A stretch of DNA of 64,000 bases from an uncultured Spirochaetota bacterium (GCA_963734545.1 CAVTHO010000004.1:512001-576000), one strand, 5' to 3'. Shown: positions 1,548 through 15,674, numbered from the stretch's first letter. Notes: a model not told the origin generated them from the sequence alone. Made by a program: numbers and translations.

Positions 1548-3533
1548 TCAAGCGATGCGTGTCACCCTCTCGAACACCGGTATCCGCTCGATCGGCGCGG
1601 CGCATTCGACGGTCTGGCCGCCTTCCAGGAGTGAGCCGTCGTACAGGTTCTTCCAGCGACCGTCCGGCAGATAGACCATTCTCGATCGCAGGGAGGGCGC
1701 GAGGACCGGAGCGACAAGCAGGTCGCAGAAAAGGAACTCGTCTTCCACGGCCCATGCTTTCGGGTCCTCCGGGTAGTCGAAAAAAAGCGGCCGCATCGGC
1801 GGAACGCCCGTCTCGTGGGCGGAACGCATGGCCTCCACAATCCGAGGCCGCAGGCTCTCTCGCAGCTCGATGTGCTTCGCGCAGATCTCGTAGATCTCCT
1901 CGCCGTAGCTCCATATCTCGTTCGGGGCGCCGGAGCGGCAGGGAGCGCCACCGGTGGTGCCGACCTGGGGCTGCCGGGGCTCGCGGTCTCCGTGCAGGCG
2001 CATGACCGGACAGAAGGTCCCATACTCGAACCACCGTGCGAAAAGCTCGCGGAACCCGGGGTCATTCGGGTCACCGCCGTGAAAACCGCCGATGTCGGTC
2101 GTCCACCACGGGATGCCCGCAACGCCCATGTTCAGCCCCGCCGCGAGCTGGTTGCGCAAGCTCTTCCAGCTCGAGTGGATGTCCCCCGACCAGACCAGGG
2201 CGCCGTAGCGCTGGCTGCCGGCCCAGGAGCATCGGACCAGGTTGATGATTTTTTCCTGCCCCGCCGCCGACATGCCTTCATAGAAGGCCCTCGCATACAT
2301 GAAGGGATAGATGTTCCCGACGGCGAGGTCCGAGCCGAGGTGATACCGGTAATTGTCGAAGTCATACGCCGTGTATTCGGGCTCGGCCTCGTCCAGCCAG
2401 AACACACGGATACCCTTGTCATAGTAGTTTTTCTTGACCTTGGCCCAGACGTATTCGCGCGCCGCGGCCTTGGTGGCGTCGAAGTGGAGCGTGTTGCCCT
2501 GGAAGTCCATCGAAACGCGTATGCCGCGCTCCGTGCGGATGAGATGGCCGAGATCGCGCATCTCCGCGAAGTTCTCGCTGCGGTAGTCCACGGTCGGCCA
2601 GATGGAGACCATCAGCTCGATTCCCATTGCCTTGAGCTCCGCGATCATGGCTTCGGGATCCGGCCAGTAGGTCGGATCGAAGCGCCAATCTCCCTGGGTG
2701 GGCCAATGGAAGAAGTCGACGACGATGACGGACAGCGGCACACCCCGGCGCCTGTACTCCCGCGCGACCCCGAGCAGCTCCTCCTGGGTCTGGTAGCGCA
2801 GCTTGCACTGCCAGAATCCCATGGCGAAGTCCGGCATCATGGGCACCCTTCCGGTCACGCCTGTGTAGCGCTCCAGGATGTCCCGCGGACGGTCGGCGGC
2901 CACCACCCAATAGTCGAGGGCCTTGCTCGAGGATGAACGCCAGACCGTGCCGTTCTTGGCGAAGGTGGCCCGGCCGATCGAGGGATTGTTCCAGAGGAAG
3001 CCGTAGCCGAGGCTCGACAGGCAGAAAGGAACGCTCGCCTGTGAGTTGCGGTGCGCGAGCTCGAGCTCGGTGCCCTTCAGATCGAGGTACGGCTGCTGGT
3101 ACTGCCCCATGCCGTAGATCCGCTCGTCGGCGGAGAGCGACTCGAATCGGGCCGTAAGTTCGTAGTCGCCGCCAATGATGGGGCGGAACTCGCGCGCCTC
3201 CAGATCCAGGGCCGAGCAGTCTTCGGACAGCACGTCCTTGCGGTTGCGCAGGGACTCCGTGAGGATCGGCTGCCCGCGCGCACCGAAGAAGGTGAGCTTC
3301 CCCGACCGGGCGATCTCGGCCCTGATCGCCCCGTTGGAGATCGAGGCCCGCCCCTCGGCGATCTCGATCCGGGCCCGAGCCGGCCGCGGAACAAGGGCCC
3401 AGTCCTCCTCGGGCATGGCGGGCCCTTTCGTGGCCCGCACCCGCAGCGCGTCCGGCCCCCAGGCCTCGATCCAAAGCAGCTCATGATCCTCTTCCCGCGT
3501 GAGCCTGTCCCCGATCCTGACAAGAATCGCCAT
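1548..3533 (-). CDS. Glycoside hydrolase family 31 (alpha-xylosidase/alpha-glucosidase-like)
   Basis: IYGMGQ, GFWQCKLRY, VVDFFHW, nucleophile motif FWLDEAEPE, WSGDI, WTTDIGGF, MRLHG, PPMRPLFFDYP. Confidence 0.93.
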   Translation of the reverse strand: MAILVRIGDRLTREEDHELLWIEAWGPDALRVRATKGPAMPEEDWALVPRPARARIEIAEGRASISNGAIRAEIARSGKLTFFGARGQPILTESLRNRKDVLSEDCSALDLEAREFRPIIGGDYELTARFESLSADERIYGMGQYQQPYLDLKGTELELAHRNSQASVPFCLSSLGYGFLWNNPSIGRATFAKNGTVWRSSSSKALDYWVVAADRPRDILERYTGVTGRVPMMPDFAMGFWQCKLRYQTQEELLGVAREYRRRGVPLSVIVVDFFHWPTQGDWRFDPTYWPDPEAMIAELKAMGIELMVSIWPTVDYRSENFAEMRDLGHLIRTERGIRVSMDFQGNTLHFDATKAAAREYVWAKVKKNYYDKGIRVFWLDEAEPEYTAYDFDNYRYHLGSDLAVGNIYPFMYARAFYEGMSAAGQEKIINLVRCSWAGSQRYGALVWSGDIHSSWKSLRNQLAAGLNMGVAGIPWWTTDIGGFHGGDPNDPGFRELFARWFEYGTFCPVMRLHGDREPRQPQVGTTGGAPCRSGAPNEIWSYGEEIYEICAKHIELRESLRPRIVEAMRSAHETGVPPMRPLFFDYPEDPKAWAVEDEFLFCDLLVAPVLAPSLRSRMVYLPDGRWKNLYDGSLLEGGQTVECAAPIERIPVFERVTRIA

Positions 3534-5387: not shown

Positions 5388-6598
5388 TTACTTCGCGGCG
5401 ACGATGGGGTCGATGGTCTTCTGTGCCTTCGCGGCGGCCGCCTCGGGGGTGGCGATACCCGTGATGGCTTCGTTCATCGCCAGGGACAGGGCGTCGGAGA
5501 TCTCGGGCCAGCGGGGGTGCGGGCCGCGGGGCTTCGCGGAGGCCATCTGCGCGGCGAACACCTTCATGATGGGATCATTGGTGAACTGCGCGGCGGCCAC
5601 GTCCTTGCGCGACGCGATGTAGCCGAAATCGTTGATGTAGGTCTTCATCTCGGCCGGGTTCGCGACGAACTTGAGGAACGCGATGGCCTCGCCCACCTTG
5701 TCACCCTTGACGACGCCGAAGTTCTCGCCGCCGAGGTCGGAGGCCGGTGTCGCGCCGACGGGGAGCTGGACGACGTTCCACTTCAGGTTGGGCGCCTGCT
5801 GGCGCATGGTCGGGACCTGCCAGGGCCGTTGACCATCATCGCAAGGTTCCCGGAGATGAACTGGTTCATGACGTCGCCCTGGGTCCAGTTGATGACTTCC
5901 TTGGGCATGGCTCCGCTCTTCACCAGATCACGGACCAGGGAGAGTGCCCGGATGCCGTTCGCGTTGTTGATCTGGAAGGACGTGTTGCCGCTGCCCCAGA
6001 GGAAGCACAGGAAGCCGAAGGTGCCTTCCTCGTTCTGGACCGAGCTGATGCCGAAGCCGCGGACATTGCCCTTGGTCGTCTTGAGGGCGACGCTCTTCAG
6101 CTCGTCCCAGGTCTTCGGGGGCTTGACCCCGGCGGCCTTCAGCATGTCCTCGTTGTAGTAGAGCGAGAGGCAGTTGCTCCCGAAGGGAATGCCGTAGAGC
6201 CTGCCGTTCAGCCTGCAGGAATTGAGCGGTCCCTCGAAGTACTGCTTGAGGTCGGGCCACGAGGCCAGCTTGTCGGTGATGTCGGCAAAGATGCCCATGG
6301 CGGAATAGGAGGCGTGATCCGGATTGTCGATAATCACGATATCCGGCAGCTCAGAGGCAGCGGCGCCGATGGAAAGCTGCTTCTTGAAGTCCGCGAAGGG
6401 GATGTACTTCGTCACGACCTCGATCGTGCTCTGGGAAGAGTTGAAGTCCTTGCAGACCCTGGCCAGGGTCTCCTGATGCTTCGGCGTCTCCCAGTAGTTC
6501 CAGATCGTTACCGTCTTCTTCGACTGGGCAAAGGCGCCGCTCGTGAGCACCGCGCACATCGCGAAGATCACGAGAGCCAATACGAGGAATCTCTTCAT
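5388..6598 (-). CDS. Sugar ABC transporter substrate-binding protein; one frameshift near 5824
   Basis: Signal peptide MKRFLVLALV..AFA, ELPDIV, LYGIPF, LYYNEDML. Adding one C gives NGPWQVPTM and joins ORF 5388..5807 (DLGGENFGV, PHPRWPEIS). Confidence 0.9.
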
Positions 6599-8291: not shown

Positions 8292-10123
8292 CTACGCGGC
8301 GGGGACGTCGATGCGCACGCGGGTCCCCCCGCCGGGGGCGCCTTCGACCTCCACACGCGTCTCGCTTCCGTAATACATCTTTATGCGGGCGATCGCCGCG
8401 CGCATGCCGACATGGCCCCTCCCGCTGGGCTCAGGGACAGACCCGCTGTCCAGGTCGCGAAGGGCGGTCTCGCTGATGCCCCTCCCGTTGTCCGCGATGA
8501 CGATCCGGATCCTGGCATCCACCCGCGCGATGGAGACGGCCAGCTCGTGCCTGCCCTCGACGCCCCGGAAGCCGTGGAGGATCGCGTTCTCCACGAAGGG
8601 CTGGAAGAGCAGCTTGTGGATGCGGCAGGCGCGGGCCGCGGGATCGAGGTCCAGCGTGAAGTCGAAGGAGCCCTTCACGCGCGTCTGCTGGAGGGAGATG
8701 TAATTCTTCAGCCAGGCCACTTCCTGTTCGATCTCAACGACTCCATTGCTGTTGTCGATGCCGTAGCGGAAAATCTCGGCCAATGTGTTGATCGCGTTGC
8801 TGATCTCGAACTCGTTGCGATCGATCGCCATCCAGTTGATCATATCCAGCGTGTTGTAGAGGAAATGCGGATTGACCTGGGCCTCCAGGGCGGCGATCTC
8901 GGCGTTCCGCTGCTTCGTCGAGGCGTTCTGCACTTCTTCGAGCAGAGCGCCGAGCTTCGCGATCATGAGGTTGAAGTTCGCCGCGATTGTGTCGATCTCC
9001 AGCGGCATCGCCCTGTTGTTCGCGATCCTGGCAGAAAGGTCACCGGCGGCCGCCGCGTTCATGGCGTCCACCACGATGCCGATCGATCGCGTGAGGCGAC
9101 CGGTAGTGAGAAAAATGATCGCAAAGAGCACGGCAACCGAGGACAGGACGACGATGACCGTGATCCGCTGCTGGGCCGATACTTCCTGATACATGACCCC
9201 CTGATTCCGGGCAGCGATGATGCTCCAGCCCGTCTTCGCCTCCTGCAGCTCGTACAGCGACAGCCTCTTGGGGCCTGAGCTGCCGCGCCAGTTACCATCC
9301 GCCTGATCGCATCTCTCCGCTGTGATGGATCGGCGGGAAGATCGAGCCGCTTGCCGACATAGGACTTGTCGGGATACGAGACGACCGTCCCGTCGCCGGA
9401 GAGGATGAAGATCGAGTCTTCCACCGTGCCGCCCGAGGCCGGATCCGGCCGCTCATCGCAAATCTCGCCGAGCATCCTCTCGTCGATGGAGAGGATGACA
9501 ATGCCGTTCTTTATCCAGATATCCTTGTAGTCGATCAGGCGATGCGCCAGGTGAAAGAGGTAGTAGTTCTTCGGCGCATAGAAGGAGGCGAGCTGAGAAG
9601 GAAACACGCACGTCTCGTTCCCCTCGATTACCGACTGGTAGAGCCGGGACGGCTGGCCTCCCGCGATGTCGAGCCAGGAGGTCTTGGTGTTGTAGCCCGT
9701 CAGCAGATCATCGAACACCATCCTCCCGCTGCTGGCGAGAACGACGATCGACTGTACATAGGGCATGGCGTAGGCGTAGGAATGCAGCGCCCGGCGCAGC
9801 TGGCCCGAATTGAACTCGATGTTCTCTCCGTTGTTTACCTTGTTGACCAGTTCGATGATGTGATCGTCCGTGTACATCTGGTGGAGGAGATCCTCGTAGA
9901 AATCCAATTTCGTCCTGATCGTCTTGCGCGTCTGTACGAGATTGATATTCTCGAGGGCGTCGATCTTCTTCTGCAGCTTTCCCGCGATGTTGTAGTAGGA
10001 CACGATCTGAATAACGATCACCGGCATGATCGACAGAATGCAGAAGGAAACGATCAGCCGATATCTGAAGCTTCGCTTCGCAGAGATAAAGCGAAGCAGG
10101 GAAGGCATCCGCATGGTGTGCAT
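8292..10123 (-). CDS. Sensor histidine kinase (YesM-like: Cache, HAMP, His_kinase); one frameshift near 9285
   Basis: N-terminal TM and periplasmic domain in ORF 9059..10123; QVNPHFLYNTL, QPFVENAILHG, DNGRG in ORF 8292..9194. One indel joins them via PKRLSLYELQEAKTGWSII. Confidence 0.9.
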
Positions 10124-10260: not shown

Positions 10261-10524
10261 GTGACGGCGCCTGCCTCCCGAGGGTACACACAGGTGCAGA
10301 TTGCCGAGACGTGGCAGGTCACTGATCGAACGGTCCGCACCTACCTCAGGTACGCGCCTCGGGAGAGGAAACGGCCGGTGAGGACAAGCAAGGTTGACCC
10401 GCACAAGGCGCTCATCGGCGAAGTGCTGTTCGAGAGGCTGCTGAGGCTTGGCTACACGGGAAAGAAGTCGATCTTGAAACAGTCCGGATTTGTGCATTTG
10501 ATTCGGGCGATGCCCTTCGTGTAA
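10261..10524 (+). mobile_element. IS21-family transposase (IstA) N-terminal remnant, internally deleted
   Basis: HTH GYTQVQIAETWQVTDRTVRTYL, SKVDPHK and EVLFERLLRLGYTGKKSILK match the IstA N-terminus. No DDE core and no istB follow. Confidence 0.7.
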
Positions 10525-10576
10525 TCGCCGCCGGCGGCAGGCGGACCTTGCCCAGCCGGGTGGTCAACTCATCGTC

Positions 10577-11137
10577 ATGGGTGCAACCTTTGGTAGAGGC
10601 AGGCACATCTACCCAGGTATTGACCCCTCCCCTGCTTCCCGGCACCATGGTCCGCACAGATGATAGGCGCTTCCTTCCCAGACTTCCATGACGCGGTCAG
10701 AGCTGCCGCCGCGCTGATCCGTTCCTCCCGATACCTTACCGCCTTCACCGGCGCGGGGATCAGCGTGGAAAGCGGCATCCCGCCCTTCCGCGGCGCAGGC
10801 GGGCTGTGGGACCGCTATGACCCGCGCACCCTGGAGATCGAGTTCTTCCTCCGGCACCCCGAGCAGGCCTGGCCGGTGATCAGGGAGATCTTCTACGACA
10901 ACTTCGGCAGGGCGCGGCCCAATGCGGCGCACGAGGCGCTGGCCGCCTGGGAAGCGCGGGGCCTGTTGAAGTGCCTCATCACGCAGAACATCGACAACCT
11001 GCACTACTCGGCAGGCAGCAGGAATATCGTCGAGTTCCACGGCAACTCCCGCCTGCTCGCATGCCTGTCCTGCGGCGCGCGCGTGGAGGCGCACCCCGAC
11101 CTCTTGAAGAGTCTCCCGCCCCGCTGTTCATGCGGCG
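10577..11137 (+). repeat. Copy 1 of the promoter + sirtuin-5' repeat module
   Basis: Starts ATGGGTGCAACC, carries TTGACC-N17-CACCAT (10620-10648). 10705-11137 aligns ungapped to 13936-14368 with 6 mismatches by eye. Confidence 0.95.
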
Positions 11138-11241
11138 AGGTGTTACCCTCTATGGATGATGACCTCATCTTCCACGGCGCCACGTCGTTCGGACGGTCCG
11201 GGCGGCATGAGGCTGGAGAGGTCTACTCCCCGGAAGGATAA
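10660..11241 (+). pseudogene. cobB: Truncated sirtuin (homology ends at 11137, just after the Zn-finger CSCG) with an unrelated C-terminal tail
   Basis: Keeps [26 protein letters not shown] and both Cys pairs, but lacks KPDFIFFGE, GSTGEVYPA and EVNPE. Confidence 0.85.
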
Positions 11242-12268
11242 TATTGCGAAAAATGCAGTATGGTGCTGTTTTTCTAGGCATACAAAGGTGGACACGTGGC
11301 CGGTCGGGCTGGCAGTGTCGGGCGCCGATGTCTACGTCGTAGGGAAGTTTGTGACGGGAGCAAACTATTCGGCATGCTCCTGGAACGGACCCAGCCTGGC
11401 AGATCTCAGCGGAGGGGTGCCTATCCCTGGGGCAATTGCCACCTCCCTCTACGTTTCCGGCCACGACGTTTATAGAGCGGGTTGGTGCTGGGATGGCTCC
11501 CGGGAGGTCGCCTGCTATTGGAAGAACGGGCTCAGGACGGATCTTGGTGACGGGGTCAACCGCTCGTACGCTAATTCGATTTTTGTTTCCGATGACACCA
11601 TCTACGTCGCAGGCTACTACTCAACCGGATCGACGCGTGTTGCCTGCTGCTGGACGAACAATGTGAAGCGCGATTTGCCCGGAGGAACTCCGCCTCTCGG
11701 CTCCGTTGCCACCTCGACCTGCGTCGTTGACGGCGCGGTGTACGTGGCCGGGCAATGTACAGATGATCACACAACTTTTCCGTGCTACTGGAAAGACGGC
11801 GCCAGGATCAACCTGCCCGGTGAAGGAGATGACCTGGATCAAATCTGCGCCAATTCCATCTTCGTATCCGGCTCTACAGTCTATGCGGCAGGGTGCAGCT
11901 ATGGGGATGCAAACCAATTGCTCGTTGCGTGCACCTGGACGGATGGACTGAGAACCACCCTCCCGAACGGGATAACCGCAAACTCCGTCTACGTATTTGA
12001 CGGTACGGTTTACGCGGCCGGACGTGTAAACGATTGGGGGGGAGACGCTGCATGCTATTGGAGAGGAACTGCGCGGACGCTCTTGTCGGTCGGACCGAGC
12101 CGCGAAGCCACCTCGATCCAGGTCGTGGACGGAGACATCTGTATTGCGGGGTGGTGCACCAACGAGATCAAGAGGATCGCGTGCTACTGGAAAAACGACG
12201 TGAGAACAGATCTTCCCGAGCCGAGCATACAGATCGGGGCCGTCGCCAACGCCATTTTTGTGAAGTGA
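11156..12268 (+). CDS. Seven-bladed beta-propeller-like repeat protein (true start uncertain, possibly 5'-truncated)
   Basis: Seven repeats of A(N/T)S(I/L)xVsGxxVYxAG...aCYWknG.RtdL plus a final closing strand ANAIFVK. No signal peptide is visible. Confidence 0.75.
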   Translation: MMTSSSTAPRRSDGPGGMRLERSTPRKDNIAKNAVWCCFSRHTKVDTWPVGLAVSGADVYVVGKFVTGANYSACSWNGPSLADLSGGVPIPGAIATSLYVSGHDVYRAGWCWDGSREVACYWKNGLRTDLGDGVNRSYANSIFVSDDTIYVAGYYSTGSTRVACCWTNNVKRDLPGGTPPLGSVATSTCVVDGAVYVAGQCTDDHTTFPCYWKDGARINLPGEGDDLDQICANSIFVSGSTVYAAGCSYGDANQLLVACTWTDGLRTTLPNGITANSVYVFDGTVYAAGRVNDWGGDAACYWRGTARTLLSVGPSREATSIQVVDGDICIAGWCTNEIKRIACYWKNDVRTDLPEPSIQIGAVANAIFVK

Positions 12269-12390
12269 ACTGGCGGCCAGCGCATGGCCATTCGCAGGTC
12301 TCACCGATCGACCCGTCCAGCGGAGGCTTCTCAACCGCTGACTTCGGCCGCGCCGCTGGCCGCGGCGATCTCTGCCATGCGGATTGCGTA

Positions 12391-12655
12391 ATGGGTGCAA
12401 CCTGCGGTAAACAGGCAGTAAACCCGCCCAGGTATTGACCCCTCCCCTCCTTCCCGGCACGATGACGTCACTTGATGCAAGGCCGGAAATCGTTTCACGA
12501 CACCCAGACCGCCATCCGCTCCGCCGCCGCCCTCATCCGCGGCGCCGCGTACCTCACCGCCTTCACGGGCGCGGGCATCAGCGTGGAGAGCGGCATCCCG
12601 CCCTTCCGCGGCGCCGGCGGGCTGTGGGACCGATATGACCCGCGCACCCTGGAGA
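12391..12655 (+). repeat. Copy 2 of the promoter + sirtuin-5' module (short, diverged; sirtuin fragment from 12472)
   Basis: ATGGGTGCAACC at 12391 and TTGACC-N17-CACGAT at 12435-12463. Encodes [44 protein letters not shown], then homology stops. Confidence 0.93.
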
Positions 12656-12917
12656 GACGGAAATATCGTGCTCGTAGATCGGAAGGCCCGCCGGCCGATG
12701 GTTGCGCGCGGCGGAAAGGACGTGATGGTAGCCAGGTGAGAAGTCTGTCTGCGGCATGGCTGCCCGGTCACCAGGGCTCGTGCCGACCAAGGTCTTTCCT
12801 TCAGAGCGTGAGAGGTCCATCGAGTACTGAGGTCGGCCGATCACCCACGAACTTCTGCTTGACTTCCGGCCGGCGTAGGTCAAAACTCAGATAGTCCGAA
12901 CGCGAAGGAGGTGATCC

Positions 12918-13547
12918 ATGGTTCAACCTTTTCAATCAGCGGGACCGGGGCTCGGAAAGAAACACCTGGTCGTCGCGGTGTTGCTTGGCGTTGGATTGTT
13001 GGCGGGAGCTGAAGGACTGACGAGCGGCATGGGATTCCGAGGTGGGGCAGGCGCCGACATTACATTTAGCGGTGTCGCTGCGGGAGCCGGTATCAACAAG
13101 CTCTTCCTTGACCAGCTCGAAGTCGGCCTCGTCTTCTACTACGGCAACTTCCAGGAGAAATCCGACAACGGCGTCAACACGTACACCGACAAGACCCAGG
13201 TCATCGCGTTGGCGGCCCAACTGAACTACCTGTACGGATACAGCCGGGACAAGGGAGGACTCTATCTGGTCGCGGGCGTGGGACTTGCGTATCTCGGGAT
13301 AAACTGGGAAGAGAGCAGCCCTACTGATACAAGCCTCGGAACGCCTCTTCCGGGCGGGGGCAGCAAGCAGACATTCGACGGAAGCGTGGGAGGAACTATC
13401 CTGACGCTGGGGGCTGGCTACTCTGTTGGCGGTGGGCTGGATGTTCGTCTCGAGGTTCCGCTCGTCATCACGTTCTCTCCAGCAGGAGGGGCCTCGACGA
13501 TCATTCCGCTGTTCACGCTCACCGCCGGATACCGCCTCGGCCCATAG
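12918..13547 (+). CDS. Outer-membrane beta-barrel protein (8-strand OmpW/porin-like)
   Basis: AAGGAGGT RBS, hydrophobic signal segment, alternating amphipathic strands (LEVGLVFYYG, LYLVAGVGLAY, LTLGAGY, FTLTAGYRL). Confidence 0.75.
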   Translation: MVQPFQSAGPGLGKKHLVVAVLLGVGLLAGAEGLTSGMGFRGGAGADITFSGVAAGAGINKLFLDQLEVGLVFYYGNFQEKSDNGVNTYTDKTQVIALAAQLNYLYGYSRDKGGLYLVAGVGLAYLGINWEESSPTDTSLGTPLPGGGSKQTFDGSVGGTILTLGAGYSVGGGLDVRLEVPLVITFSPAGGASTIIPLFTLTAGYRLGP

Positions 13548-13555
13548 CCGGACCG

Positions 13556-13804
13556 CTAGTGCGTCAGCCGGGCCATGTGTCCGGGGCTACGGCCGGCGTC
13601 GTGACGCTCGTGAATGTGTACGTTCGGCCCACGCCTTCGCACATTCATTTCGAGATAGCGGTACAGGGCGAGGAGCTCGGGACCGCCTGATATCTCACCC
13701 ACTGTCCGCATGACGATCCTGCCCAACGAAGCCGCGTCGCTTGAGCCGATGAGCCGTCCAAGGAGGGCGCGGATGTCGGCCTCTAGGTTCTCCAGCATCC
13801 CCAT
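13556..13804 (-). other. Possible short or truncated gene divergent from the intact sirtuin
   Basis: Its ATG (13804) sits exactly at the left edge of repeat copy 3. The N-part MGMLENLEADIRALL looks helical; no family recognised. Confidence 0.3.
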
Positions 13805-14368
13805 GGGTGTACCCATCGGTAGATAAGCAGGCACATCTACCTAGCTATTGACCCCTCCCCTGCTTCCCGGCACCATGCTGTCACTTGATGAAGAGGCCTG
13901 AGCCTTTCTCCAATGCCCATGATGCGGTTCGCTCGGCCGCCGCGCTGATCCGTTCCTCCCGATACCTTACCGCCTTCACCGGCGCGGGGATCAGCGTGGA
14001 AAGCGGCATCCCGCCCTTCCGCGGCGCAGGCGGGCTGTGGGACCGCTATGACCCGCGCACCCTGGAGATCGAGTTCTTCCTCCGGCACCCCGAGCAGGCC
14101 TGGCCGGTGATCAGGGAAATCTTCTATGACAACTTCGGCAGGGCGCGGCCCAATGCGGCGCACGAGGTGCTGGCCGCCTGGGAAGCGCGGGGCCTGTTGA
14201 AGTGCCTCATCACGCAGAACATCGACAACCTGCACTACTCGGCAGGCAGCAGGAATATCGTCGAGTTCCACGGCAACTCCCGCCTGCTCGTATGCCTGTC
14301 CTGCGGCGCGCGCGTGGAGGCGCACCCCGACCTCTTGAAGAGTCTCCCGCCCCGTTGTTCCTGCGGCG
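13803..14368 (+). repeat. Copy 3 of the module (belongs to the intact sirtuin gene)
   Basis: ATGGGTGTACCCAT palindrome, GGTAGAT-N10-ATCTACC inverted repeat, TTGACC-N17-CACCAT. Confidence 0.95.
13848..13876 (+). promoter_or_regulatory. Putative sigma70-type promoter of the cobB-ltaE operon
   Basis: TTGACC-N17-CACCAT, conserved in all three copies; the start codon is 8-11 nt downstream. Confidence 0.6.
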
Positions 14369-14652
14369 GCATCTACAAGCCGGATTTCATCTTCTTCGGC
14401 GAGGGAATCCCCGCCGACGCCCACGCGCGGTCCCAGGAGGCCGCGGGCCGCACGGACGTGATGCTCGTGGTCGGCTCCACCGGTGAGGTCTACCCCGCCG
14501 CCCTTGTGCCGCGGAGGGCGTCGGAGGCAGGGGCAAAGATCATCGAGGTCAATCCCGAGCCTTCCGAGTTCACGAGCGCGATCACCGACATCCACATCCC
14601 GCTGAAGGCAGGAGTGGCCTTCGGACTGCTGGAGGAGGAACTGCACCTATGA
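13885..14652 (+). CDS. cobB: NAD-dependent protein deacylase, sirtuin family
   Basis: Complete motif set: [58 protein letters not shown]. Confidence 0.95.
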   Translation: MMKRPEPFSNAHDAVRSAAALIRSSRYLTAFTGAGISVESGIPPFRGAGGLWDRYDPRTLEIEFFLRHPEQAWPVIREIFYDNFGRARPNAAHEVLAAWEARGLLKCLITQNIDNLHYSAGSRNIVEFHGNSRLLVCLSCGARVEAHPDLLKSLPPRCSCGGIYKPDFIFFGEGIPADAHARSQEAAGRTDVMLVVGSTGEVYPAALVPRRASEAGAKIIEVNPEPSEFTSAITDIHIPLKAGVAFGLLEEELHL

Positions 14653-15674
14653 AGACGTATGACCTGCGCAGCGACACGGTGACCCGGCCCGGACCCGGAA
14701 TGCGGAAGGCAATGGCAGAGGCCGAAGTGGGAGACGATGTCTACGCGGAGGACCCCACGGTCAACAGGCTGCAGGAGGCCGCGGCCGAGGTGACGGGCAA
14801 GGAGGCGGCGCTCTTTGTCTCCTCGGGCTCGATGGGAAACCTGATTCCCATTTATCTGAATTGCGGCAGGGGCAATGAGCTCCTCATCGAATCCCACGGA
14901 CACAGCGTGCAGCATGAGCTTGCCGGCATCACCGCCGTGGCAGGCAGCCTGCCCATCATGATCCCCGCAGCCAGGGGAATTCTGGAACCGGCGCTGCTCG
15001 AGCCGTGGATCCAGCCGGACATCTACTACTGCGCCCGCACCCGGATGATCGTGCTGGAGAACACGCACAACTCCGCGGGCGGGACCTTCTATCCGCTCGC
15101 CACTTTGCAGGCGGTCGGGGAGTTCGCCCGCAGGAAAGGGCTCGCCCTGCACATCGACGGCGCGCGGCTCTTCAATGCGGTGGCCGCTTCCGGCGTGCAG
15201 GCCCGCACGATCTGCGCGGAGGCCGATACCGTCACGTTCTGCCTGTCCAAGGGGCTGGGCGCGCCCGTAGGCGCCGTGCTGTGCGGAAAAAAGGACTTCA
15301 TCGCGGAAGCGCGCAGGGTGCGCAAGATGCTGGGCGGTGGAATGCGGCAGGCGGGAATCATCGCCGCGGCAGGCGTGTACGCGCTTGCCCACAACATCGA
15401 GCGGCTCTCCGAGGATCACGAAAATGCAAAGGTGATTGCCCGGGCCCTTGCCGGTACCACGTGGGCCAGGCTCGACCCGATGGACGTCGTCACGAACATC
15501 ATCTATTTCCGCACTCCGGGCAGGAACGCCGCCACCGTTGTGGATGCTCTGGCCCGGCAGGGAATCCTTTCCGGCGCATCCGCCGCGGACCAGGTACGGT
15601 TCGTCACGCACATCGACGTTTCAAAGGACGATGCCCGGGAGATCGCGCGCATCGTGGAAAAAGCCCGAATCTGA
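14649..15674 (+). CDS. ltaE: Low-specificity L-threonine aldolase
   Basis: DLRSDTVTRP, GDDVYAEDPTV, ENTHN, HIDGARLFNA, CLSKGLGAPVG, GGGMRQAG; ATGA overlap with cobB. Confidence 0.95.
   Translation: MKTYDLRSDTVTRPGPGMRKAMAEAEVGDDVYAEDPTVNRLQEAAAEVTGKEAALFVSSGSMGNLIPIYLNCGRGNELLIESHGHSVQHELAGITAVAGSLPIMIPAARGILEPALLEPWIQPDIYYCARTRMIVLENTHNSAGGTFYPLATLQAVGEFARRKGLALHIDGARLFNAVAASGVQARTICAEADTVTFCLSKGLGAPVGAVLCGKKDFIAEARRVRKMLGGGMRQAGIIAAAGVYALAHNIERLSEDHENAKVIARALAGTTWARLDPMDVVTNIIYFRTPGRNAATVVDALARQGILSGASAADQVRFVTHIDVSKDDAREIARIVEKARI

Follow-up and report, generated by a model that had tools for sequence, protein, structure and literature searches.

The stretch of DNA examined here, called the window, comprises 64,000 nucleotides (nt) from an uncultured Spirochaetota bacterium (GCA_963734545.1 CAVTHO010000004.1:512001-576000), represented by a metagenome-assembled genome (MAG) of 10 contigs and 5.1 Mb, with 89% completeness and 4.9% contamination. 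The window contains an array built around cobB, a gene for a predicted Sir2-family NAD-dependent deacylase (sirtuin). The intact gene (13885-14652, plus strand) matches Pfam PF02146 over the entire profile (positions 1-180 of 180, E 1.9e-40), and is preceded by an upstream region (13803-13884, plus strand) in which a TTGAC box, 17 nt and the sequence CACCAT follow one another. Three direct copies of a module, each consisting of ~80 nt of upstream sequence and the start of the Sir2-family gene, begin at positions 10577, 12391, and 13803, with a common left edge in a three-way alignment; only module 3 extends to a complete cobB. Module 1 (10577-11137, plus strand), supported by the repeat finder, alignment, Pfam, and BLASTP, holds the upstream region and cobB codons 1-161, and its open reading frame (ORF; 10660-11241) reaches into a diverged tail. 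Module 2 (12391-12655, plus strand), supported by the repeat finder and alignment, holds the upstream region and codons 1-61 of a diverged allele. Both truncated cobB copies match Pfam SIR2 too. The repeat finder delineated a three-copy family (10672-10837, 12490-12655, and 13903-14068), an additional 300-nt pair with 97% identity, and a 51-nt upstream family at 10599, 12414, and 13827. The three modules and the intact gene had been recognized in a preliminary description made from the sequence alone, and are confirmed by these analyses.

Over codons 18-161, modules 1 and 3 are 98.6% identical (433 nt), with the six differences counted previously; of these, two exchange Ala and Val and the other four are synonymous. 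The identity of the two modules drops to only ~77% in the upstream region and the first codons, and on the other side it stops after codon 161, the diverged tail being weakly aligned by BLASTP to cobB as far as codon 172. The preliminary description treated module 1 as simply truncated. A 98.6% tract flanked by ~77% identity on the left and by unrelated or diverged sequence on the right points instead to a gene-conversion tract between copies 3.2 kb apart. Module 2 is 79.9% identical to module 3, and in codons 17-61 the two differ by 10 synonymous and 3 non-synonymous codons, in agreement with the earlier statement that the differences are mostly synonymous; all six codon pairs listed at that time are present. 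A whole-genome search revealed a fourth cobB remnant (G000:C4:511284-511444; L004 ~1460-1625), which precedes window position 1 by about 560-720 nt. This remnant carries two internal deletions, lacks an upstream region, ends near codon 128, and is preceded by a DsbA-like gene.

Orthologues of cobB with 73-90% identity are present in 13 related genomes (12 congeners and 2 genomes of other genera, one of the latter with two copies). Extra cobB 5' fragments were found in at least 5 of 20 congeners, all uncultured Spirochaetota MAGs (G009, G011, G013, G014, and G019), and in 2 of the 4 other family genomes sampled (G023 and G024). Six such fragments, from four genomes, stop at an identical base within TQNID codons 111-114, and metagenome contigs add three joints identical to those of the congeners, bringing the number of joints at the same base to nine. 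The joint is followed by a conserved sequence of ~115 nt, hereafter the arm, which is present in the metagenome contigs as well, and then by toxin-antitoxin genes and stubs of tyrosine recombinase genes. The fixed joint reads CAGAA-CATCGA-TTCTG, an inverted pair around a 6-bp spacer, as in a tyrosine-recombinase attP core, and intact cobB reads CAGAA-CATCGA-CAACC at this position. In the window, the latter sequence, the putative attB core of the relatives' elements, is located at 14215-14230 (plus strand) in intact cobB, and an uninterrupted copy lies within module 1 (10984-10999, plus strand). Six of seven arm copies adjoin cobB fragments, and the seventh is at a contig start; the arm has no match in the window genome. 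A search with the exact joint pattern among 185,579 species genomes returned four contigs only, all from relatives already found. When five related loci (59.5 kb) were searched against Rfam with an E cutoff of 1, only a chance miRNA match appeared, and the arm corresponds to no known RNA family. Relatives show both variable cargo and extra cobB 5' fragments, two of the observations on which the preliminary description had staked its proposal. They also bear out its view of cobB as a recurrent insertion hotspot, at which inserts bring an upstream region and a 5' end and strand the former one.

In congener G009, the stranded fragment is followed by the arm, a GNAT/TacA toxin-antitoxin pair, and a gene for a 310-amino acid (aa) tyrosine recombinase (PF00589, E 4.6e-41). 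Between this gene and intact cobB lie, in order, the stub of a second recombinase gene, genes for a LuxR-type regulator and a lipoprotein, and a new upstream region with a cobB 5' end. Recombinases encoded by metagenome contigs are 73-95% identical to that of G009, and their genes again adjoin a cobB 5' fragment. Intact recombinase genes are present in this one congener and in L066 and L067. In G011 (twice), G014, G019, G023, and G024, stubs encoding the C terminus of the same recombinase are found, antisense to cobB and immediately preceding either cobB itself or a stranded module. The most complete copies, L066 and L067, encode an XRE-type regulator, a ParA-like ATPase, a 905-937-aa DnaG-type primase, and two overlapping recombinases, with a DUF4258/MqsA-like or AbiEi/AbiEii pair beside the arm. 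The two adjacent, overlapping tyrosine recombinase genes (L066 6043-7927, L067 5974-7930, and L030 5475-6756) are ~36% identical to each other. Cargo orientation in the relatives' units is mixed, and surface-protein genes are among the cargo. A search of IMG/VR with IntB revealed only relatives with 30-34% identity; the element is therefore not a known virus. We conclude that, in this genus, cobB serves as attB for an integrative element, by which the upstream region is replaced together with codons 1-113. The former cobB 5' end stays behind as the island boundary, and repeated integration and decay apparently leave tandem units of arm, toxin-antitoxin genes, and recombinase stubs.

Two further findings in relatives concern cobB sequences away from these joints. 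In G014:C18:155000-170000 (L033), which is not the cobB locus, inverted cobB 5' fragments (2717-3005, minus strand, and 12117-12452, plus strand) flank ~9 kb with a methylase gene of restriction-modification type (named by eye) and an IS91-family transposase gene (NF033538, E 7e-35). One of the fragments is located just past the 5' end of the transposase gene; rolling-circle read-through, a property of IS91/ISCR elements, could carry such an adjoining fragment along. G023 belongs to a different genus; besides one stranded fragment, it carries full-length cobB-type genes at two positions separated by 50 kb (G023:C1:1258563-1259342 and 1309104-1309859).

None of the parts of this element was detected in the window. 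No remnants of recombinase, primase, ParA, or toxin-antitoxin genes were detected in C4:500000-532000 by tblastn to E 5, which returned noise only, and tblastn with IntA and IntB gave nothing better than E 0.067 in the window. The closest integrase homologue in the window genome is 41% identical and is encoded on another contig. With no trace of the element left in the window, the array appears to be immobile at present. The window and its left flank do not show one crossover point followed by an arm: the fragments there stop after codons 61 and 161 and near codon 128. Since the ends at codons 161 and ~128 lie beyond codon 113, deletion of a fragment cut at the att site cannot produce them. 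The target gene is intact by virtue of a 5' end supplied by the insert here, as it is in G011, G014, and G019. The preliminary description argued from the lack of an integrase and from differing right ends against a single fixed att site within the gene. Both observations hold for the window; the argument fails for congeners and metagenome contigs, in which a two-integrase element uses one exact position at the TQNID codons.

The joint of module 2 is the only one with both partners identified. There, cobB codon 61 is fused to X' (12656-12760, minus strand), 105 nt that correspond, in antisense orientation, to codons 1-35 of a URO-D-family gene, X. The cobB sequence ends in CTGGAGA and the antisense X sequence starts from GACGG, so the shared bases are GA (2 nt). 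X is a conserved chromosomal neighbour, divergently oriented and upstream of cobB, and is separated from it by 1.6 kb in G002, ~9 kb in G014, and ~28 kb in the window genome, where the full-length gene is located at C4:496452-497510. X' is 84.6% identical to this resident X, 88.4% to X of G002, and 84.3% to X of G014. We therefore conclude that X' is not a local duplicate but an allele from another lineage, and that the third insert, between modules 2 and 3, is probably a stretch of the chromosome of a related lineage, from X to cobB. Module 2 thus has homology at one end and few shared bases at the other joint, as is characteristic of homology-facilitated illegitimate recombination, and both X' (84.6% identical to resident X) and module 2 (~80% identical to module 3, with a synonymous bias) point to DNA from another lineage.

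The cargo between modules 1 and 2 is a gene for a propeller-like repeat protein (11156-12268, plus strand), with Pfam matches below threshold only. Members of this family with 34-54% identity are present in 15 of 20 congeners, and paralogues are encoded in the same genome. The window gene lacks a lipoprotein signal peptide, which a paralogue has, together with a lipobox; the module 1 joint therefore appears to cut into a gene, too. Between X' and module 3 lies a gene for a small secreted protein (12918-13547, plus strand), previously described as a beta-barrel gene, with a signal-like N-terminus and no Pfam or NCBIfam match. Its homologues in G014 (72% identity) and G018 (61%) are at other loci and share the ORF alone. 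The adjacent ORF92 (13556-13834, minus strand; 92 aa) is an orphan without a family and possibly not a gene; it is divergent from module 3 and overlaps its left edge. A search among 5.8 billion proteins, restricted to forms of near length, found nothing but ORF92 itself. The preliminary description called the cargo foreign, which is only partly right, as the propeller family is multi-copy in the genus and the secreted-protein gene has homologues in two congeners. On these comparisons, the cargo is not demonstrably alien to the genus. Low G+C content at third codon positions (GC3) was considered as proof of foreign origin and rejected: members of the propeller family have low GC3 in general, and the paralogue from the same genome has a GC3 of 0.60.

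The promoter named in the preliminary description is a putative one. Of 21 aligned upstream regions, 18 have a conserved TTGAC box. A consensus scan flagged no σ70 site in the modules, the module 3 upstream region included, and a promoter and terminator scan of 10400-14000 returned one promoter-like site (11214-11242), the same number as in shuffled sequences, and no terminators. The left edges of the modules (13803-13830, 12391-12403, and 10577-10589) correspond to the last codons, encoding SITNGCNL, of a 5' fragment of a radical-SAM gene, the end codons of which make up the first ~13-25 nt of the module 3 upstream region. About 75 radical-SAM codons lie directly upstream of cobB or a cobB fragment in G008, G009, G010, G019, and G023, and a complete radical-SAM gene of 415 codons is present on contig C8 of the window genome; the radical-SAM sequences concerned include L009 313-651 and L064 640-1887. 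The radical-SAM edge was considered as a second att site, but its likeness to the cobB core is only loose, and the left edges vary by up to ~25 nt between modules. Selection for a minimal upstream region may explain the edge equally well.

We interpret the window array as the product of serial insertions, each of which appears to have restored the cobB 5' end. The array would thus be a fossil record of accretion at a recombination hotspot in the 5' half of cobB. The route that we favour, with a confidence that is not high, is homology-anchored insertion with an illegitimate second joint, as the preliminary description had suggested; module ends that lie off the att position and the joint of module 2 to an apparently imported allele of X are consistent with it. 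By this route, each acquired DNA would have ended in an upstream region and a cobB 5' end. Recombination within that homology would have rebuilt a full cobB, and the old 5' end with its upstream region would have been stranded to the left. The DNA may have entered either as a linear fragment, by homology-facilitated illegitimate recombination, or as a circularised fragment, by one crossover. For the third insert, the donor would have been the chromosome of a related lineage, from X through the secreted-protein gene and ORF92 to cobB. This DNA would have entered with cobB homology as the anchor at one end and an illegitimate joint at the other, or as a circle that this joint had closed, by a single crossover. 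The first two inserts probably arrived by the same route. Modules 1 and 3 would have been homogenised later by gene conversion over codons 18-161, and the stranded upstream regions may now drive co-oriented cargo genes.

Several observations weigh against homology-anchored insertion. Reconstruction succeeded for only one of three or four joints: the right flank of module 1 has no match in the 20 congeners, so that its other parent was not found, nor did a donor genome emerge in which X, the beta-barrel gene, ORF92, and cobB follow one another. Gene conversion has to be invoked as an extra event to explain why modules 1 and 3 are nearly identical. The joint of module 2 would also result from a deletion joining codon 61 of an att-truncated fragment to an X gene carried by an element. 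The left edges of all three modules coincide within ~25 nt, and metagenome contig L070 has an integrase stub next to a module that matches them in type and left edge, so chromosomal and element-borne modules form one lineage. The window modules could therefore descend from element-borne copies, and an element may have contributed to the older inserts. In addition, no public contig spans two modules (six sequencing runs share at most 0.19 of words with the window, and the four examined hold short contigs). A mismatch-free 455-nt contig of one run (X1, record 2; depth ~3) joins 13504-13845 to 10618-10730 across 32 shared nt, linking the ORF92 side of module 3 to the first codons specific to module 1. 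This back-joint could be a recombinant, a looped-out circle or variant, or a graph artefact.

The main rival of homology-anchored insertion, which we consider possible rather than probable, holds that all window modules are remains of the cobB-specific integrative element, which would have integrated serially at the TQNID codons and then lost its arm, toxin-antitoxin, and integrase genes by deletion, after which break repair, with the intact gene as template, would have extended or overwritten the fragments. The element itself is well attested in relatives, and the nine identical joints (six in four genomes and three in metagenome contigs), the arm beside cobB fragments in six of seven copies, the intact recombinase genes of G009, L066, and L067, and the stubs upstream of cobB in the five genomes named above all favour this scenario. 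The L070 module and the surface-protein cargo of relatives fit it equally. The array in the window agrees with it less well: deletion only shortens a fragment cut at codon 113, and module 1 (codons 161 to 172) and the fourth remnant (~128) are longer; traces of arm, integrase, and toxin-antitoxin genes were not found here; and X' is an allele of a chromosomal gene rather than known element cargo. Local segmental duplication of the cobB 5' region within the lineage, followed by unrelated insertions between the copies without import, would account for the almost identical modules 1 and 3, and in its geometry the joint between codon 61 and X codon 35 matches one formed by tandem duplication of a head-to-head gene pair. 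We nevertheless regard it as improbable, because module 2 and X' have diverged from the resident copies by ~20% and ~15%, respectively, because the synonymous bias of module 2 is that expected of genes under selection in another lineage, and because module 2 lacks, on its left, the interval of X, beta-barrel gene, and ORF92 that a tandem duplication would have placed there.

A strain-chimeric or repeat-induced misassembly of the MAG is the least credible explanation and can be considered very improbable. The completeness and contamination of the MAG, the failure to find public contigs spanning two modules, and the 455-nt contig of run X1, which leads from 13845 back to 10618 over a 32-nt shared stretch, would all be compatible with it. 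Similar arrays, however, are found in several congeners as well as on metagenome contigs, the differences between the modules are ordered, every joint is unique, and the contig is 784 kb long. The X1 joint itself is the product expected of a k=31 graph at low depth over a 32-nt repeat. A further proposal makes the upstream region and cobB 5' end a portable homology and expression adapter: circles bearing it, be they excised elements, array units that have looped out, or circularised pieces of chromosome, would be captured at cobB by homologous recombination, each leaving a stranded promoter to express the next cargo gene. We consider this proposal doubtful; if it is true, the adapter would constitute an integrase-independent, integron-like platform for gene capture on a housekeeping gene.

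Separate histories of the 5' and 3' halves of cobB were also considered and were not demonstrated: pairwise identities of the two halves are only weakly correlated (r 0.46), and their trees differ, yet alternative groupings, chosen after viewing the trees, were not rejected by the approximately unbiased (AU) test (p 0.22 and 0.25).

To the right of cobB, the array is followed by a gene for a threonine-aldolase-type pyridoxal phosphate (PLP) enzyme (14649-15674, plus strand; Pfam PF01212, E 7.1e-98), which is a conserved neighbour of cobB in relatives. The left neighbour of module 1 is an N-terminal fragment of an IS21-family transposase gene (10261-10524, plus strand; NCBIfam NF033546, E 1.5e-6, profile positions 6-64 of 294; no Pfam match). 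A stretch of 53-72 nt at the end of this fragment (10460-10531) is 78-81% identical to L029 3916-3984, upstream of a cobB fragment in G023, and to L033 11688-11740, within the IS91-like gene region of G014:C18. The ~11 kb between the fourth remnant and module 1 contain DUF4398-like, glycosidase-like, and sugar ABC transporter genes and a YesM/YesN-type two-component pair. Two genes of this interval, for a histidine kinase (8292-10123, minus strand) and a sugar-binding protein (5388-6598, minus strand), are each split into two overlapping ORFs, reflecting either a real frameshift or an indel error of long-read assembly.

With these findings, a sirtuin gene can be added to the few protein-coding genes known to have their 5' end targeted and rebuilt by mobile DNA, in a host genus of uncultured Spirochaetota from soil and wetland. 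The genus would show two routes to one outcome: a two-recombinase element with a precise att site, and homology-anchored illegitimate insertion of chromosomal DNA. This suggests that foreign genes can generally enter at a locus once the 5' end of its gene travels on mobile DNA. The arrays would preserve earlier alleles and cargo, for the most part toxin-antitoxin pairs and surface proteins, as a dated stack from which population history could be traced. The processes involved are all known in principle. The preliminary description knew of no such hotspot at a sirtuin gene, and our literature search likewise found no report of cobB or a sirtuin gene as an integration target, though supplementary target tables of island surveys may list one. 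The novelty is less than that description supposed, since dusA islands are already known to restore the 5' end of their target gene (PMC4482086).

Among known systems, rhs and cdiA orphan toxin-immunity arrays consist of displaced 3' ends of polymorphic toxin genes, located downstream of the active gene. As at cobB, displaced gene ends with a stretch of conserved core pile up beside the active gene; the cobB stack, in contrast, is made of 5' ends with their upstream regions, and the gene affected is a metabolic regulator. Integron cassette arrays resemble the cobB arrays in being ordered series of small units that share one recombination site, with frequent toxin-antitoxin genes, as in the relatives studied here. 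The cobB array differs in having no adjacent IntI and no attI (there is no recombinase in or beside the window array), in having the arm once per unit, beside the cobB fragment, in the upstream region and gene fragment that each unit carries, and in the mixed orientation of its cargo. Elements of the SXT/R391 family also supply a new promoter and N-terminal codons to the target gene; unlike the cobB element, they are large and conjugative, rely on a single integrase, and replace few codons.

The closest parallel to the element in relatives is provided by dusA-specific islands and prophages, in which a tyrosine-recombinase element occupies the 5' part of a conserved housekeeping gene and restores its 5' end (Farrugia et al. 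2015, PMC4482086). The arrangement of the cobB element is the same as that of these islands with their DAI integrases (PMC4482086). The cobB element differs in its target, the catalytic TQNID codons of a sirtuin gene, with 113 codons and the upstream region being replaced, and in its two adjacent recombinase genes; cobB elements also stack in tandem and decay to toxin-antitoxin stubs. The window array itself departs further from dusA islands, as it has neither an integrase nor a fixed joint.

For the window array, the nearest counterpart is homology-facilitated illegitimate recombination, known from natural transformation, in which one homologous anchor is combined with a microhomology joint. 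In both cases, foreign DNA is inserted beside the anchor and the other end is joined over a few shared bases (2 nt in module 2). In the window, in contrast, the event appears to have been repeated at a single gene, which would have been rebuilt each time, with an ordered stack of old 5' ends left behind.

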